This document shows positions 1 to 7,016 of a stretch of DNA of 64,000 nucleotides, piece after piece. This stretch comes from Coraliomargarita sp. Lineage in GTDB: Bacteria > Verrucomicrobiota > Verrucomicrobiia > Opitutales > Coraliomargaritaceae. Both the position numbers and the translations under genes were made by a program. Location of the stretch: assembly GCA_965216325.1 (NCBI GenBank), contig OZ244160.1:2848001-2912000 (forward strand), read 5' to 3'. The notes beneath the pieces are model-generated. The model did not search any database and was not told the origin of the DNA. It worked only from the letters and a program-made list of their open reading frames with translations. Position 1 is the first letter of the stretch. The number at the start of each line of letters is the position of its first letter.

Positions 1-230
1 CTCAAAGGGCTACTGGCGTCTGGCTCAAGCGCTGGGCACACAAACGGCAATGAGCAATCAATGGCTAGAGGAACAAGGCCTGATCAACATCAGGCAACAA
101 TGGTGGAGTTTAAAGCTCCTGCGTATAACCGCCTTAAAACAGACTGCGTAACACTGTGATCAGTCTGGCTGCGGACCCGCACGGCAGGTGGTGTGAGAGC
201 CGGGGGACTTAGGGCCCTCGGCTACTCGAT
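1..230 (+). mobile_element. Group IIC-attC intron B, copy 1, 3' part (RT C-terminus, DV, DVI); continues beyond the left window edge
   Basis: Encodes maturase-X tail SKGYWRLAQALGTQTAMSNQWLEEQGL. DV ACCGCCT...AGGTGGT (128-192); DVI with bulged A ending CTACTCGAT. Identical to 4696-4925 except position 213. Abuts R'' GTCGAA of cassette 4. Confidence 0.9.
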
Positions 231-236
231 TTCGAC

Positions 237-914
237 CTATTTTAGTTTTATCGTCGGGGTGCCCTCTAGGTCGAAAATGACTAGATAAATTTCTTTTCGA
301 TGGTCTCCTTCTACTATCTCAAGCTTTTCAAGTAGAGCTTCATCGGAAAATGTTAATCTGAAAGCGTGGCTGCTTGGCATTGTGACTATGACAACATTCT
401 CATTTTCATTTTCTATGTCTCCGCCTAAGGAGGTAAGTTTCTCAGTGAGGTATTCTCTTTTTCTTCCCAACTGAATGTAGTCATTGCCGATGGGTGACCT
501 ATTCGCTTGGACTGCTAGTTTAAAGCCATCCTGCTTCATCAGAAGAAGTTCAGCCCCACTTCTTCTACCGTTTTCTTTTATTACATAGTATCGAACGTAG
601 TAGACATCTTTGTGAGCAAGAGATTTTTCAGATGGCAGTATGTGAATCTCTGACAGATCAGATGCTTTCAAAACGGTTCTCCACGCTGACTCAGGTTTCT
701 TATTCGATGGCCATTCAATCCAAGTTCTACTGAAGTATGGTTCTAGCTTTTCATACTCTTTATTGTAAGCGGCAGTCAGAATTTTTATCGCGACATGATC
801 GGGTGATCCTGGCTCAACATCATATTCTGTAATGCTCACTGGTGTCGGGCGAGCGGATACGCTGTTTATGCATGCTAAGAGAATGCTGAATGATACAATG
901 ATTTTCTTTTTCAT
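237..914 (-). CDS. Integron cassette 4 gene, hypothetical exported protein (225 aa)
   Basis: ATG follows R' GTTCGAC after a 6-nt leader. N-terminal signal peptide MKKKIIVSFSILLACINSVSA. AT-rich. Stop lies immediately before R''. Confidence 0.8.
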   Translation of the reverse strand: MKKKIIVSFSILLACINSVSARPTPVSITEYDVEPGSPDHVAIKILTAAYNKEYEKLEPYFSRTWIEWPSNKKPESAWRTVLKASDLSEIHILPSEKSLAHKDVYYVRYYVIKENGRRSGAELLLMKQDGFKLAVQANRSPIGNDYIQLGRKREYLTEKLTSLGGDIENENENVVIVTMPSSHAFRLTFSDEALLEKLEIVEGDHRKEIYLVIFDLEGTPTIKLK

Positions 915-920
915 TTTTTC

Positions 921-977
921 GTCGAACGTGGAGGACGGGCGCGGCTTCAGCCGTTGTCCCGCTCCGACTTGATCTGC
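921..977 (-). other. attC: attC site (57 bp, intact) of cassette 3
   Basis: Top strand reads GCAGATC-aagtc-GGA(G)CGGG...CCCGTCC-tccac-GTTCGAC. This is R''/5-nt spacer/L'' with an extra base at position 4, then L'/5-nt spacer/R'. Confidence 0.85.
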
Positions 978-1549
978 TTTGTTTTTTCTATGGATTCGTG
1001 AATATATGCAGGCGCACTGTCTGGCACATCTGAAGCACGAACAAGACGATACCGAATCCAATTTGAACTCTCTGCTTCTCGTTGGGCCTCCTCGTCCACA
1101 AAGGACTGAAAATGAATTCCGGAAGCAGTTAATCCGATAGTGGTTTCGGCGAAACGTAGGATGTAATCTTTAGGGCTAACCTTCCCTGTCGGCCAACCAC
1201 TGCTTTTACTATATAGTTCACTTTGAAGTGGTATTGTTATCGTCGATTTATGGTCTACATCATCAACGAGAATCTTTATTTCATTTGCATCACTGTTTGC
1301 TAAAAATTTGACGCTGCCGCTAGGGGCGGGTGCTTGGAAAGCACTGAACCAATCGCTTCGCCCATCGGACTTCTCTTTCACGAAAAAGTAAAGCTCTTGG
1401 GTCTGGTATGATTCAATCGGCAAATCCATCTCGGCGGGAACGAAGTGAAGTGCACGTGCAAGATCAGATGCCGAAACGATTTCTTTTTCTTTGTTACAGC
1501 CGATTGATAGCAAAACGGCCAAGCCTAATATCACGTTGGTTACTTTCAT
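947..1549 (-). CDS. Integron cassette 3 gene, putative lipoprotein (200 aa)
   Basis: Lipobox LSIGC after a hydrophobic stretch. Starts 7 nt after R' GATCTGC. ORF runs into its attC and stops in the attC loop. Confidence 0.8.
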   Translation of the reverse strand: MKVTNVILGLAVLLSIGCNKEKEIVSASDLARALHFVPAEMDLPIESYQTQELYFFVKEKSDGRSDWFSAFQAPAPSGSVKFLANSDANEIKILVDDVDHKSTITIPLQSELYSKSSGWPTGKVSPKDYILRFAETTIGLTASGIHFQSFVDEEAQREAESSNWIRYRLVRASDVPDSAPAYIHESIEKTKQIKSERDNG

Positions 1550-1556
1550 TTTATTC

Positions 1557-1616
1557 GCAGATCGTAAAGAGGGGTAACTAGTGGGCGCAGCACACTAGTT
1601 GACCCTCTCGCCTGGT
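1557..1616 (-). other. attC: attC of cassette 2, split by intron A (remaining 5 nt of R'' at 3523-3527)
   Basis: Removing the intron gives TGCGAAC-caggc-GAG(A)GGGT(C)AACTAGTG...CACTAGTTACCCCTC-tttac-GATCTGC (65 bp) with two extrahelical bases. Confidence 0.85.
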
Positions 1617-3522
1617 GTGTGCCGAGCATGCGCTCGATGTAAAAGTGGTTAAAGTCCGCTATAGTAAGAACCTAATCATAAAATGAAAGAACTATTACCA
1701 GATGCCAAGGGCGTTGTCGTGAGGCAGGGTCTGAAGGAAGGCTATGGGAAAGCTGCGAGCTGATGAACAAAAACTGCATAGAAGGCCGACGTGGTCTGGT
1801 GAGCTGGCACCACACAGCGAAACCGCTAGGTTCAGCCACGCAGGTAAATGCAGCAGTTGTGCAGCGGAGCATCGAGTGCTTACCTCGGGAGGCCTCAGCG
1901 AGTGGCATGGGTTGGCTTAAAGGTGTCAATCAAGCCCATGCACCTGAGTCAGTAATGACACAGGCGGCACTGGTTGAGGATTCAGCAGCGAGCATAGTAG
2001 TCATGGAACCGCGAGCCATGAGTAGGTCGATAGGCCGAAGAGCATGGAGGTCTCGAACGTGATGAAGGCTCAAACCGTATATGGGCAGTCCGACCCGCAG
2101 GCAGGTTCACCTCTCACTGGCACAGACCCGTGTCGAGAGCTGGGCGATGTTTGTGCAGGGAAGCATGGGGCTGCCGAGCAAGAACTACTGGAGTTGATGC
2201 TGGACCGCGCTAATCTGAACGCAGCTTGGCGGCGTGTGCGCAGCAACGGTGGAGCTTCTGGCATCGACGGTATGTCGATCGAGGACTTTCTGCCGTTTGC
2301 GCGCGAGCACTGGTCACGGATCGAGACTCAACTGAAAGAGGGAACCTACCAGCCAGCCGCGGTGCGCCGCGTCTGGATACCGAAGGACAATGGGGAGAAG
2401 CGCCCACTGGGCATCCCCACGGTGTTGGATCGTGTGATCCAGCAAGCCATCGCTCAGGTAATTGCGCCGATCTTTGAGGCACAGTTCAGTGAGCACAGCT
2501 TCGGCTTTCGTCCAGAACGCCGAGCCCATGACGCAGTCAAGTCGATCCAAAGCGCAGCCACTGAAGGTCACGTGTACGCGGTCGATTGTGACCTGAAGTC
2601 ATTCTTCGACACGGTCGATCATCGTGAATTGATGCAGCGTCTAGCGCGCCGGATCAAAGACGGGCGCGTGCTGCGCCTGATCTACCGCTACCTGAAAGCA
2701 GGCATCCGCTTGCCCGATGGCAACACCGAGGCAACCGCCGAGGGGGTGCCACAGGGGGGACCGCTCAGTCCGCTACTGGCCAATATCATGCTCGATGACC
2801 TCGACCATGAACTCGAACAACGCGGGCACCGTTTCGCACGCTACGCCGACGATTTTGTTATCGTCGTCCAAAGCAAGCGAGCGGCTGAGCGCGTGATGCA
2901 CAGCATCAGTGGCTTCATCGAAGCGAAGCTCAAACTGATCGTGAATCGCGAGAAAACGAAGGCGGGTCGGCTGACACAGTGCAGCTTCCTCGGATTCGTG
3001 ATCTCGCCCAAGCGTATCCGCTGCTTGGATACCAAACTGCACACGTTCAAGAAGACCATCCGTCAAATCACCTGTCGCAGTTGGGGCATCTCCATGGAGG
3101 AACGCCTCGAACGTCTACGACTGTATGTGAATGGCTGGCTGGGTTACTTCGCTATCGGTGTGCCGTTCAAGGATATCCGCAGCATGGATCAATGGCTACG
3201 AAGGCGTGTGCGCTTGTGCTACTGGAAACAGTGGCGTTTACCGCGCACGCGCTACCGCAAGCTACGCGCGCTTGGGATCAACCCGAAGACGATTAAGCAG
3301 GCTAGTCGTTGTCGAAAAGGCTACTGGCGCTGCAGCAAACTGCGAGTGGTCAGTATCGCGATGAACAACCAATGGCTCGCCGAACAAGGCTGCCCCTCAA
3401 TCAAAGAACAGTGGCTCAAACTCTGCTATCCAAACGGATAGCTCTAACGGAACCGCCGTGCTACGGAGCCGTATGGCCGGTGGTGTGGGGGCGGGAGTCA
3501 GTGATGGCTCCCGCTACCCGAT
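1617..3522 (+). mobile_element. Complete group IIC-attC intron A
   Basis: 5' end GTGTGCCGAGCATG and 3' end CTACCCGAT. IIC-type DV at 3452-3484 with CGC triad. Candidate EBS1 ACCA (1809-1812, in a GCTG/CAGC stem loop) is complementary to 5' exon TGGT. Inserted at GT|T of the attC bottom strand, just after the hairpin. Confidence 0.93.
2044..3441 (+). CDS. ltrA: Group II intron reverse transcriptase/maturase, no endonuclease domain (start uncertain)
   Basis: Motifs RPLGIPTVLDRVIQQA, DCDLKSFFD, GVPQGGPLSPLLANI, RYADDF and X-domain GWLGYF. Confidence 0.95.
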   Translation: MEVSNVMKAQTVYGQSDPQAGSPLTGTDPCRELGDVCAGKHGAAEQELLELMLDRANLNAAWRRVRSNGGASGIDGMSIEDFLPFAREHWSRIETQLKEGTYQPAAVRRVWIPKDNGEKRPLGIPTVLDRVIQQAIAQVIAPIFEAQFSEHSFGFRPERRAHDAVKSIQSAATEGHVYAVDCDLKSFFDTVDHRELMQRLARRIKDGRVLRLIYRYLKAGIRLPDGNTEATAEGVPQGGPLSPLLANIMLDDLDHELEQRGHRFARYADDFVIVVQSKRAAERVMHSISGFIEAKLKLIVNREKTKAGRLTQCSFLGFVISPKRIRCLDTKLHTFKKTIRQITCRSWGISMEERLERLRLYVNGWLGYFAIGVPFKDIRSMDQWLRRRVRLCYWKQWRLPRTRYRKLRALGINPKTIKQASRCRKGYWRCSKLRVVSIAMNNQWLAEQGCPSIKEQWLKLCYPNG

Positions 3523-3592
3523 TCGCATTTTGGGCTCCGCCAACAGATCAACTTCAGACTACTACAATTTGATTCAATTTAGCGTGTGAAAA

Positions 3593-4454
3593 TTAGAAGA
3601 AATCATCGACGGCCTGGTCTTCTTTAGCCTCTTCCTGAGCTTTTCTCTGTTCCATTTTATTAATTAAGTCTTCCTCGGCTCCTTTAAAGAGTGGGGTCGA
3701 ATGAGTCAGCAGGTATATTTCCTCGATGTTACGGGAATTCACTTTTTCCCATAGGGCATCGATCATAGCTCGGACTTCGGGCATAGTGTTGTAAGCTGAT
3801 CTGTCTACATTCATATTTCGCATCATCTTATCTTTGGTGAGGCCCTCTTTTGCACTCTCTGATAAATTACCGTAAATTTTAGAATAGATAACTCGACCGT
3901 AATTGGTGCTATTCGAATGTGTTACACGAGTTTGAAAACCATCTATTCTTTCCTCCTTGCTCTCATCGAGCTTACCAAACCTCTTGCGAATCGCTGCGTC
4001 CATTTTAGGTTCAAGATCGATATCAACTTTTTTAATTACCCCGAAAAACCGATTATTTATGGATAGAACTGTTGAACCGTCATGTTGGATCGCAGTGATA
4101 TAATTTCTGATCTCACTTAATTGAGGAAATGCTTTCAAGATGTCTGCGTCTAATTTATTGAGTGATACGTTAGGCAACTGATAGGAATCTAGCTGGGTTT
4201 TCTGATATATCTTGAGGAAATCTTCGATCGGAATTCCCCAGGGAATATCTTTATACCCTTTGTAAACGGACGAATCTGCAGTGACATGATTTTTGACTAG
4301 TTCATCAATTGCGGCTTTGGACTTTTGCTCTTGTCGCTCAATCTCAGCCTTACGCTCCTCTTCGGCAATGCGTCGCTCTTCCGCTTTGCGGGCTTCCTCA
4401 GCCTTACGCTCCTCTTCGGCAATGCGTCGCTCTTCCGCTTTGCGGGCTTCCTCA
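3593..4454 (-). pseudogene. Integron cassette 2 gene, 5'-truncated (charged coiled-coil repeat plus unknown domain)
   Basis: AT-rich ORF. Its apparent N-terminus (4455-4507) is antisense intron-B sequence. Native start and R' (expected GTTCGCA) are missing. Confidence 0.7.
4347..4454. repeat. Two perfect 54-bp tandem units encoding EEARKAEERRIAEEERKA
   Basis: 4347-4400 is identical to 4401-4454. Confidence 0.95.
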
Positions 4455-4925
4455 CCCGTCGCAACTGGAGTGTGAGTATGGAGTATCGTCTGTATCAGAT
4501 CCGCCAATACGTGCGGGGCTGGATGGGCTACTTCGGACTCAGTGAAAACTCCAGTTTATGGATCTGGATTGACCGCTGGCTTCGCAGGCGAGTTCGCATG
4601 TGCTACTGGCGCATGTGGAAACGCCCGCGACGTCGCTATCTCAATCTGGTGAAAATTGGCTCCAATAGTAAGTTTGCTGGTGGCTTTGCTAAAAGCTCAA
4701 AGGGCTACTGGCGTCTGGCTCAAGCGCTGGGCACACAAACGGCAATGAGCAATCAATGGCTAGAGGAACAAGGCCTGATCAACATCAGGCAACAATGGTG
4801 GAGTTTAAAGCTCCTGCGTATAACCGCCTTAAAACAGACTGCGTAACACTGTGATCAGTCTGGCTGCGGACCCGCACGGCAGGTGGTGTGAGAGCCGGGG
4901 GACTTAGTGCCCTCGGCTACTCGAT
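4455..4925 (+). mobile_element. Group IIC-attC intron B, copy 2, 5'-deleted
   Basis: Translates TRRNWSVSMEYRLYQIRQYVRGWMGYF...WLRRRVRMCYWRMWK, homologous to the intron A X domain. DV/DVI as in copy 1. Abuts R'' GCAGAA of cassette 1. Confidence 0.9.
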
Positions 4926-5293
4926 TTCTGCCTCCAGGCGGTTAGTGTGTCGATTTGCTCTAACGTGTGTTTGTTGGTATCCCAAACTGGAGTGAAAAGT
5001 GAGATTCTATTTGGAATAAGTGGCACGACATAAATATGGATAGATGAATTCTCATCTTCTTTATATCTAATGTCGATATAGTTGAAAGTCTTTGGCTTCG
5101 CCGTCCTAGGAAAGGTTCCGAGTTCGATAGATTCTATTTTTTCTTTTTCTATCCTAAGGTTTAGCCTTCCTGATGTGCATTCGATCGAATCTGGGTTGAT
5201 TCTGAACTTTCCTTTACTTTCATAAACCCAGAACCATCTGCCAACGAAAGATGCGTTATGTTCAGGTGTGGAGAAGAATGCTTTAAATTCCAT
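4904..5293 (-). CDS. Integron cassette 1 gene, hypothetical (possibly PH-like fold); C-terminus reads into the intron
   Basis: ATG 7 nt after attI core GTTCTGC. No stop before R''; terminates at TAA inside intron DVI. Confidence 0.7.
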   Translation of the reverse strand: MEFKAFFSTPEHNASFVGRWFWVYESKGKFRINPDSIECTSGRLNLRIEKEKIESIELGTFPRTAKPKTFNYIDIRYKEDENSSIHIYVVPLIPNRISLFTPVWDTNKHTLEQIDTLTAWRQKSSSRGH

Positions 5294-5300
5294 TTCTTTC

Positions 5301-5340
5301 GCAGAACAGTGTTATGTAACGGACTCAGTCCGTGATTAGC
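5301..5340 (-). other. attI: attI recombination site (core G|TTCTGC at 5307-5301)
   Basis: GTTCTGC precedes the first cassette and is complementary to that cassette's R'' GCAGAA(C). No attC-type hairpin upstream. Lies 5' of the divergent intI. Confidence 0.75.
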
Positions 5341-5702
5341 TGGTTTAGGGATTTGTAAAAAACTTACGTTTTTTGATTTAAGTGATCTTGTTAGGGGGCT
5401 TTACACCAGTAGTAGAGGTGGATTGGAATCGAGTGATGGTTTTGAGGTAAGTCAAAATGTGAAATGGCGGCAAGGTTTGTTTCCTCAAAATCATGCATTC
5501 GTGGGCTTTTTTTGGGCAAATGTATGATTTGCTTGTTTTGTGATGTGGTGGTTTGTGTGGTCGGCCTGTTGTAGGGTGTTGATTGCTAGATGTTTGTGTG
5601 TGTTGCGGGGCGGTTTTGAGTGGTTTGGGTCTCCTCAAAAACATGCATTCAAATGTGAGTCTGCGAGTTGAATAATGAACTGATGTTTACATGTTGGGGT
5701 GT

Positions 5703-7016
5703 ATGAAAACAGTTCATTTTCCACGTTGGGCGGAGGTCTTGCGCGAATCCTCTTTAGGGGAGGAGTTGCGTTCGAGTTATAAGGTCACGATTCGCTGGTA
5801 TTTGAGTTGGTGTGCCAAGCAGCATATCGGCTGTTCGGTTGAGTCGGCGCGTGCCTTTGTTGATTGGGCAATCAATGAGAAGCAACCTAAAGATTGGGTC
5901 ATTAGCCGTTGGCAGGCTGCGATTCGCTGGTTCTTCGTGACAGCAAAGGAGCAGGCGGCACCAGGGGGCGGAGTGAGTCAGGAGCAGAGTGGGGACGCTC
6001 CTGCGCTAACTGCACTGGAGCGGCGAGATTTGGAGGCGGAAGAGCGGGTTGAGGCGGCGAACGACGATGAAGGGCGGATTTTAGCGGTGATGCGACGACG
6101 CGGGATGGCTCTGCGAACTGAGCGGGCCTATTTGGGGCACTATCGTAGTTTTGTGCGCCAGTCGGGTTTGGTGGATGGCTGTTTGATGTCGGCTTCGATG
6201 GTTAAGCGCTACTTGGATTATTTGGCGATGGAGCGTGCAGTGGCGTCCTCGACGCAGAAGGGGGCGCTCAATGCCTTGGTGTTCATCGCACAGGCTGTTT
6301 TCGGCATTGAACTGGGGGATATTGGTGACTTTGTGCGCGCGAAGAATCGGAGGCGTATTCCGGTGGTGATGACTAAGGAGGAGTTGCGTTTGTTCTTTCA
6401 GCAATTGAGCGGTGAGAAGCTATTGATGGCCCGGGTGCAATATGCGGCCGGCTTGCGTGTCTCCGATCTATGCCGTTTGCGTGTGCAGGATTTGGATCTG
6501 CAGCGTAATCAGTTGGTTGTGCGCTGTGGTAAGGGGCACAAGGATCGAGTGGCACCCTTACCTGAGTTGTTGAAGTCCGAATTGGAGGCGCAGTTGTCTG
6601 TTGTGCGGAGCCTATTCGATGAAGATTTACAGCGTAGTGATCTTGCGGGGGTTTATCTGCCTGAGGCCTTGGCGCGGCGACACAAGAATGCGGGGCGAGA
6701 TTGGCGTTGGCAATGGGTGTGGCCGAGTCGTAAGATCTCCACGGATCCACGCGGTGGGAAACGTCGTCGGCATCACGTGTTGCCGAATACTTATCAGCGC
6801 ATTGTTCAAGATGCAGGAAAGGACGCTGGGCTGACCAAGCGAATTACGAGTCACACCTTACGGCACAGTTTTGCCACGCACTTACTGGAGGATGGCGTGG
6901 ACATCCGGACGGTGCAGGACTTGCTCGGACACAAGCATATCGAGACGACCCAGATTTACCTGCACGTCATGCAGAAGCCGGGGGCGGGGGTGCGCAGCCC
7001 GCTGGAAACGCTTTGA
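5703..7016 (+). CDS. intI: Integron integrase with N-terminal extension (alternative start 5691)
   Basis: Tyrosine recombinase motifs [17 protein letters not shown] and LLGH...TQIY. IntI-specific insert [11 protein letters not shown]...WQWVWPS...DPR...RRHH. Confidence 0.95.

Follow-up and report, generated by a model that had tools for sequence, protein, structure and literature searches.

GAT/ATC cores among the attC sites of verrucomicrobial chromosomal integrons, and the group IIC introns of the same arrays

Core triplets and attC introns in described integrons

Of all features of integron sites, the GTT/AAC triplet is the one usually taken to be invariant, and both attC finders and cassette-boundary calls lean on it. 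For Cury et al. 2016, AAC/GTT is the triplet that is conserved, "more conserved than the others" (PMC4889954), and GTT was described as absolutely conserved in the integrons known to Frumerie et al. 2010 (PMC2811028). In the latter study the triplet was mutated in attC and in attI1, and its second position was found to be "quite tolerant": changing T2 to A2 together with its complement gave wild-type or higher attC x attI1 recombination by IntI1, and GAT was cited as a preferred secondary site (PMC2811028). A non-complementary site, with GTT opposite ATC, lowered recombination by IntI1 from 2.2e-3 to 6e-6 (PMC2811028). The consensus of IntI1 insertions in genomes is GWT (bioRxiv 10.1101/2022.09.11.507474). 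Group IIC-attC introns, such as S.ma.I2, insert in the bottom strand of attCs, in R'', at the consensus TTGT/T (PMC7923331; PMC3001079).

The window, which is the whole stretch of 64,000 nucleotides analysed here, corresponds to positions 2848001-2912000 of a genome that consists of a single contig of 3.06 Mb. The attC of its third cassette (attC 3) has a GAT/ATC core and shows, in the folded bottom strand, the same T2-to-A2 change with complement as the GAT/ATC mutants of attCaadA7 and attCVCRd studied with IntI1 (PMC2811028). However, those sites were engineered mutants used with IntI1, whereas the sites described here form a natural class, seen in sequence, in chromosomal integrons of a different phylum, and the integrase here carries an N-terminal extension of about 130 aa. 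The attG or secondary sites of the form 5'-GWT-3' likewise accept A or T in the middle of the triplet (bioRxiv 10.1101/2022.09.11.507474); there the W lies in a double-stranded genomic target, whereas here it lies in both halves of the cassette's own R box.

Similar to the sedentary chromosomal integrons and CALINs of Cury et al. (PMC4889954), this genome possesses intI with a divergent attI, promoterless cassettes, homogeneous attCs and integrase-less arrays. Unlike those systems, the single genome studied here combines three intI, two attI remnants without intI, and a heavy intron and IS load. The resident introns resemble the S.ma.I2 kind in being antisense to the cassettes, in the bottom strand and in R'', with a 4-nt EBS1-IBS1 pairing and T as first base of the 3' exon (PMC7923331; PMC3001079). 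In place of TTGT^T, the target of that kind (PMC7923331; a caret marks an insertion or crossover point), type B uses TGGT^T and type A uses CTGG^T, which lies at the integrase crossover point; attC 3 offers TTGA^T or CTTG^A.

Tolerance of GAT by IntI is already accounted for by published work and is not new biochemistry. A literature search for natural GAT-core attCs, of incomplete coverage, returned only the mutant and GWT work, and the variant may be published. The new element is that GAT-core cassettes appear as a natural, widespread class in this bacterial family (14-23% of attCs), where the position-2 tolerance known from experiment would actually be used in nature; cassette-boundary calling should accept GWT. 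We consider it probable that attC 3, in a sedentary chromosomal integron, is an attC of the functional type, that cassette 3 belongs to a GAT/ATC minority class, and that the absence of an intron there is mainly a matter of spacer mismatch and chance.

The attC of cassette 3, its integron and its integrase

attC 3 is located at 921..977 on the minus strand, the plus strand being the recombining bottom strand, and was delimited by sequence, covariance-model matches and folds. The plus strand reads GTCGAAC...CTT GATCTGC at 921-977, and GCAGATC at 1557-1563. The site comprises a hybrid R' box at 921-927 (bottom strand GTCGAA^C), a CTT spacer at 968-970, and R'' at 971-977 (bottom GATCTGC, top GCAGATC). 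The mobile unit of cassette 3 (927..1562, minus strand, 636 bp) extends on the top strand from the start ATCTGC (1562-1557) to the G at 927; its crossover points were placed from the complementarity of start and R'' common to all arrays. The sequence-only reading had placed a GAT/ATC core at both ends of this cassette, and both are read in the sequence (R'' GCAGATC, 977-971; start G^ATCTGC, 1563-1557). It was also right that TTGA (969-972) forms the four bases preceding the intron-type insertion point in attC 3.

Cassette 3 encodes an ORF of 200 aa (947..1549, minus strand) with a hydrophobic N-terminus, and its final codons overlap attC 3. The protein had no match among Pfam or NCBIfam families. 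Homologues were sought as a way of following the core along a single cassette lineage; they were found in two of 60 relatives, with 40% and 38% identity, and the one examined lies outside any recognisable cassette.

The cassette ORF has no promoter and ends in attC 3, and the array adjoins intI and attI, with its cassettes on the opposite strand. attC 3 matches the covariance models of the genome's attC family with 56 bits (R1) and 63.2 bits (R2, E=3e-14), the models having drawn on the attC family of this genome and its relatives. The imperfect palindrome R''-L''...L'-R' is present, although the energy of the array form is by itself not distinctive: the fold is unexceptional (-9.2 kcal/mol, z=-0.04) and no better than shuffles. 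With the cassette's own first six bases sliced opposite R'', as in the excised circle, attC 3 closes completely into a hairpin (-15.2 kcal/mol) whose R box has 7 bp, a fold equalled by 2 of 300 shuffles, and the unpaired bases and bulges lie on the R''/L'' arm (3' arm), as expected of a bottom strand. R'' pairs with G plus the first six cassette bases at 7/7 positions, which has a chance of about 6e-5 for two fixed positions; the same complementarity of the first six bases to the cassette's own R'' is found in cassettes across the arrays. Where the conserved triplet would have GTT in R' and AAC in R'', attC 3 has GAT and ATC (971-973 and 1561-1563). The stretch 921-977 is confirmed as a genuine attC carrying a GAT/ATC core.

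In the folded bottom strand, the IntI cut would fall after the second base of 5'-AAC-3' and before the third, the triplet being ATC in this case. A cassette would then carry its first six bases along with its own R'', and the two would pair again once the circle is excised. The change looks "compensatory" at both ends because these two elements travel together; given the position of the integrase cut, start and R'' belong to one mobile unit.

The cassettes lie to the left of intI on the minus strand, and the array extends left beyond the window. At the left edge is the 3' end of an intron of type A, copy A1 (group IIC-attC; 1..230, plus strand), which starts left of the window and is inserted at G^TT in R'' of the attC of cassette 4; its 3' exon is TTCGAC (231-236). 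Cassette 4 encodes an ORF of 225 aa without a family match (237..914, minus strand). To the right of cassette 3, the 5' part of the attC of cassette 2 (1557..1616, minus strand, read on the bottom strand) ends at the IBS1 TGGT (1613-1616). An intron of type B (group IIC-attC; 1617..3522, plus strand; RF02001, 126.6 bits) is inserted there at GT^T in R'', with its EBS1 ACCA at 1809-1812 and an RT/maturase ORF at 2044-3441 (TIGR04416, 397 bits). The remaining R'' of attC 2, TCGCA (3523-3527), is directly 3' of this intron.

The ORF of cassette 2 (3593..4507, minus strand) has lost its 5' part in a deletion that also took the 5' part of intron copy A2, a truncated type A copy in the attC of cassette 1 (4465..4925, plus strand, start approximate; 3' exon TTCTGC, 4926-4931). 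Within the truncated ORF there is a tandem duplication of about 52 bp (window 4340-4450), adjoining the deletion that joins the ORF to A2 (about 4465).

The junction of attI and cassette 1, GCAGAA^C on the bottom strand, is located at 5301-5307 (minus strand), and the attI sequence of this integron recurs at three other arrays. The genome also has two more intI genes (74% and 39% identity). In addition, intI is missing from two attI remnants, and one cluster of attCs has no integrase. The region between attI and intI of the window integron is present in two further copies with no integrase gene behind them (genome 558790-559000 and 2278655-2278900), and these integrase-less attI copies are integron remnants.

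IntI is a protein of 441 aa with an N-terminal extension (5691..7016, plus strand). It matches the IntI-specific profile TIGR02249 with 356.5 bits against a cut-off of 265, and aligns without gaps over 308 residues with VchIntIA (PDB 2a3v), a span that includes the IntI-specific insertion region; profile match and insertion together mark it as an integron integrase. K281 of IntI is aligned with K160 of VchIntIA, the lysine which contacts the triplet (PMC2811028). Judged by these alignments IntI appears ordinary, and a special integrase would be unnecessary for GAT.

In its array form, attC 3 has an R box that combines AAC with GAT, and A.A results at 926/972. In attC 2 the R box combines ATC with GTT: its R' box (GCAGAT^C, 1557-1563) is a hybrid with the cassette 3 start, and T.T is found at the middle core position (1562/1616). 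T.T is the very mismatch that costs IntI1 about 370-fold (PMC2811028), so by analogy mixed GAT/GTT junctions may be poor excision substrates. These arrays offer a natural system for asking whether mismatched hybrid R boxes stabilise arrays, and whether the core shapes the traffic of attC-homing introns and IS elements.

GAT cores in this genome and in its relatives

The genome was counted as having 30 attCs, 29 from two model searches plus the remnant of the attC of cassette 1, distributed over five loci that are integrons or remnants of them, and an attC cluster that lacks an integrase. Searching for attC arms by regular expression was too noisy (63+41 and 315+375 matches), and the covariance models were used in its place. 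Three R1 matches outside the arrays (near 1380818, 2396482 and 2360978; E 0.38-8) were judged false and dropped. The count leaves out divergent hairpins near 549,640-549,763 and, at about 818,940-818,970, a fused half attC. A hairpin to the left of the window (genome 2844396-2844451), considered as an odd attC, aligned poorly and is the conserved end of an IS91-family element; it was removed from models and counts.

The R'' triplet of the 30 attCs is GTT in 22, GGT in one and GAT in seven. Besides attC 3 (In1-3), the GAT sites are those of the first cassette of the second integron (In2; ACAGAT^C at attI, R'' GATCTGT), the first cassette of the integrase-less In4 remnant (ACATAT^C, R'' GATATGT), a cassette at genome 2276221 (AGCCAT^C, R'' GATGGCT), two cassettes of the third integron (ACACAT^C with GATGTGT, and GTCGAT^C with GATCAAC), and one site near 1.30 Mb whose cassette start is lost. 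All six GAT cassettes with a readable start begin with AT, and all GTT-R'' cassettes with a readable start begin with TT. Among the attI-proximal cassettes two of five are GAT (In2 and the In4 remnant).

The earlier proposal that this IntI can integrate GAT-core cassettes is supported by these figures (GAT in 7/30 attCs, AT at 6/6 readable starts, two cassettes at attI), and we infer that IntI is competent to recombine GAT sites. Position 2 of the triplet would not be read strictly by integron integrases, W being accepted, and GAT cassettes would therefore be captured at attI like others.

The R1 search gave matches in 26 of 61 genomes, including the genome of the window (150 matches listed and 40 further ones). 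All listed matches outside the window genome, except four from one genome (G057), made up a set of 80 loci from 22 genomes, and a renewed search of these loci yielded 146 attC matches with E <= 1e-4. Among the matches listed, R'' of these 146 attCs in 22 genomes has GTT in 123, GAT in 20 and ATT in three, and the R' side has AAC in 112, ATC in 30 and another triplet in four. GAT is present in nine of the 22 genomes (among the matches listed). Pairs of neighbouring attCs that match at >=5/6 positions were GTT-AAC in 34 cases and GAT-ATC in two, with none discordant (36/36 concordant at the middle base, among the matches listed). One relative (G014) carries GAT in 5 of 12 attCs, and in several of these sites the R' side reads ATC as well (among the matches listed), which suggests runs of GAT cassettes. 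With GAT in 7/30 attCs here and 20/146 in relatives, GAT appears to be a widespread natural minority class of this attC family and not an oddity of one cassette. The three ATT triplets likewise end attCs of relatives, among the matches listed.

GAT could also mark a decayed, non-recombining attC of a sedentary array, a product of mutation and not a functional variant, or the cassette boundary could have been misplaced. The array-form hairpin is no more stable than shuffles, and introns and the deletion have damaged neighbouring cassettes, as such decay would have it. However, decay would not alter both ends in step, as is seen in all six readable GAT cassettes; GAT cassettes hold the attI-proximal position in two arrays, the class recurs in nine of 22 related genomes among the matches listed, the R box is a perfect 7 bp in the fold of the excised form, and the covariance-model scores are high. 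We regard decay as very improbable. Another reading is that selection favours the motif for its GATC, say as a site of methylation or restriction, and not as a variant of the recombination core. Four of the seven GAT R'' sites here do read GATC, but the other three are GATA or GATG, which are also frequent in relatives; the GATC reading was rejected on the three non-GATC cores, and is extremely improbable. A natural minority class of recombination cores remains the preferred reading.

Resident introns and their occupancy of attCs

The genome has 19 matches to RF02001 (group IIC): five introns of type B, four of type A, and ten of a third type outside the arrays. Type B introns carry the EBS1 loop GCACCACA (ACCA), follow TGGT and are inserted at GT^T; type A introns carry the loop GCCCAGGA (CCAG), follow CTGG and are inserted at G^TT, one base upstream of type B. 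This is in agreement with the sequence-only reading, which had matched TGGT with an EBS1 of ACCA: the window intron at 1617-3522 follows TGGT (1613-1616) and has ACCA in its EBS1 loop (1809-1812). In relatives, introns with the loop GCACAACA (ACAA) sit at TTGT^, with 17 more in the scan of the genome collection, and type A introns of Thalassobacterium maritimum have loops containing CAAG and CCAG. The EBS1 assignment is shown, at the level of sequence, by this covariation of EBS1 and IBS1. EBS3 was not located. All 11 type A 3' exons begin with TT (5/5 in this genome, 6/6 metagenome matches). Type B is found at TGGG^ in two of five copies with the ACCA loop unchanged, and IBS1 position -1 is not strict for this type.

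A target of the resident introns consists of a hairpin, next 4 nt complementary to EBS1, and finally T as first base of the 3' exon, and attC 3 lacks such a target. Against type B it presents TTGA^T in place of TGGT^T, matching two of four IBS1 positions; against type A it presents CTTG^A in place of CTGG^T, with three of four IBS1 positions matched and IBS3 mismatched.

Cassette 3 had been described as the only one free of introns. This holds among the four attCs touched by the window, but neither for the array, which extends past the left edge of the window, nor for the genome, where 21 of 30 attCs are intron-free, 14 of them non-GAT. Introns occupy nine of these 30 sites, all with cores other than GAT. 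The count of GAT against GTT cores and of intron occupancy that the sequence-only reading had called for shows that GAT recurs here and in relatives, but its occupancy trend is weak: GAT 0/7 against 9/23 for the other cores, one-sided Fisher p=0.057, numbers that are small and come from attCs of one genome, which are not independent. The same caution applies to the spacer, where non-CTG attCs are occupied in 0/9 cases and CTG attCs in 8/20 (one-sided Fisher p=0.029). All eight occupied attCs with a readable spacer have CTG, and the canonical attCs with CTT or CTC contain an intron in none of six cases. Within the CTG spacer class GAT is occupied in 0/4 and the other cores in 8/16 (one-sided Fisher p=0.10), and within the intron-holding arrays in 0/4 and 9/16 (p=0.068). 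Neither In3 nor the attC cluster near 1.30 Mb has an intron in its array. The spacer predicts intron occupancy better than the core.

It had further been proposed that the core change may protect the attC from introns. In its full form, the GAT core itself would protect attCs from IIC-attC introns and may be selected for that, type B losing the IBS1 -1 pair and type A the IBS3-EBS3 pair. The occupancy trends overall and within intron-holding arrays (p=0.057 and p=0.068), the invariant TT of the type A 3' exons, and the covariation of EBS1 with IBS1, by which single mismatches plausibly matter, agree with it. So does a junction scan of 80 of at least 121 loci, with one genome per species and either base allowed at -1, which returned 58 intron-like matches, 18 unclassified or chance matches and four that were too short: B-register intron-like matches follow GT in 57/58 and GA in 1/58, proportions that depend on how frequent GAT is in these genomes. 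Named records with the intron type of this genome are mostly Verrucomicrobiota, among the 80 of at least 121 loci listed.

However, 14 non-GAT attCs are empty, which is the finding of many intron-free canonical attCs that the sequence-only reading had itself named as telling against protection, and the premise taken from the window alone fails. The CTT spacer of attC 3 already mismatches both introns, and canonical attCs with CTT or CTC are likewise empty. Type B tolerates TGGG^ with the same ACCA loop, a one-base change of EBS1 would retarget an intron (cf. the ACAA and ACCA variants), and the IS91-family element did insert at a GAT attC. The sole GA case among the 58 comes from Thalassobacterium maritimum (L147), where an attC contains a B-like intron that follows ...GCGTCTGGA (CTGGA^). 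This attC resembles a GAT attC of the present genome, and the contig ends 133 nt into the intron, so that its EBS1 is not seen. Other RF02001 matches in T. maritimum were considered as a source of this EBS1, and belong to other introns. The evidence given for protection is an effect of the window edge, protection by the core is not established, and we consider it doubtful.

Probably, then, the GAT core is not the reason why cassette 3 escaped introns. Under the preferred reading of spacer mismatch and chance, the spacer-plus-core sequence CTT-GA^T would mismatch EBS1 of both lineages, ACCA of type B needing TGGT^T and CCAG of type A needing CTGG^T. Chance would also contribute, because the majority of the genome's attCs have no intron. 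One more contact, IBS1 -1 for type B and IBS3 for type A, would be removed by the A at core position 2, and the GAT core may add partial protection that is neither necessary nor sufficient. A partial core effect, larger for type A through IBS3, fits the data and is possible but unproven; as for the relative weight of spacer and core, we infer it from these patterns.

A broader proposal is that GAT and GTT form a maintained core dimorphism in verrucomicrobial integrons, with GAT attCs refractory to IIC-attC introns and mixed junctions locking cassettes. If this were true, introns of the G^TT register would lose IBS3 and those of the GT^T register IBS1 -1 at GAT attCs, and A.A or T.T at the cleavage site of hybrid R boxes would lock cassettes in place. 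We consider such a dimorphism unlikely. Intron protection, if true, would link two mobile-element systems.

An IS91-family element of about 2.5 kb is present in three copies inside attC bottom strands, at genome 2841920-2844445 (just left of the window), 815791-818315 (minus strand) and about 1299807-1302330 (minus strand). It encodes a transposase with Y2_Tnp and Zn_Tnp_IS91 domains, preceded by a tyrosine recombinase ORF. The left flanks end in ...CTGG, and the right flanks start with the remainder of the local R'' (TTAGGC, ATGTGT, TTCGGT). The insertion point is that of intron type A and of the integrase crossover, and one of the targets is a GAT attC. Either the element targets attCs itself or it was inserted by IntI as an inverted cassette, and we are undecided between the two.

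One pair of adjacent cassette ends in the array at 0.55 Mb does not match, which suggests a rearrangement, perhaps through repeated introns. At genome 550373-552278, introns are nested in one attC: a type A intron is interrupted by intron B, one base in from its 5' end. A further B copy (genome 2273965-2275927) lies in an attC reading ...CTGGG^intron^TCTAT, where the cassette start ATAGAA^C predicts GTTCTAT and G is found before the intron, not T. This CTGGG junction could be a post-insertion mutation, or a conversion from the nested copy with the same junction. The ten copies of the third group IIC type, none of them in an array, are nearly identical; 347946, 1096274 and 2978080 are examples of their positions. 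In relatives, two introns related to this type (L086 and L088) are located just after terminator-like hairpins followed by T runs.
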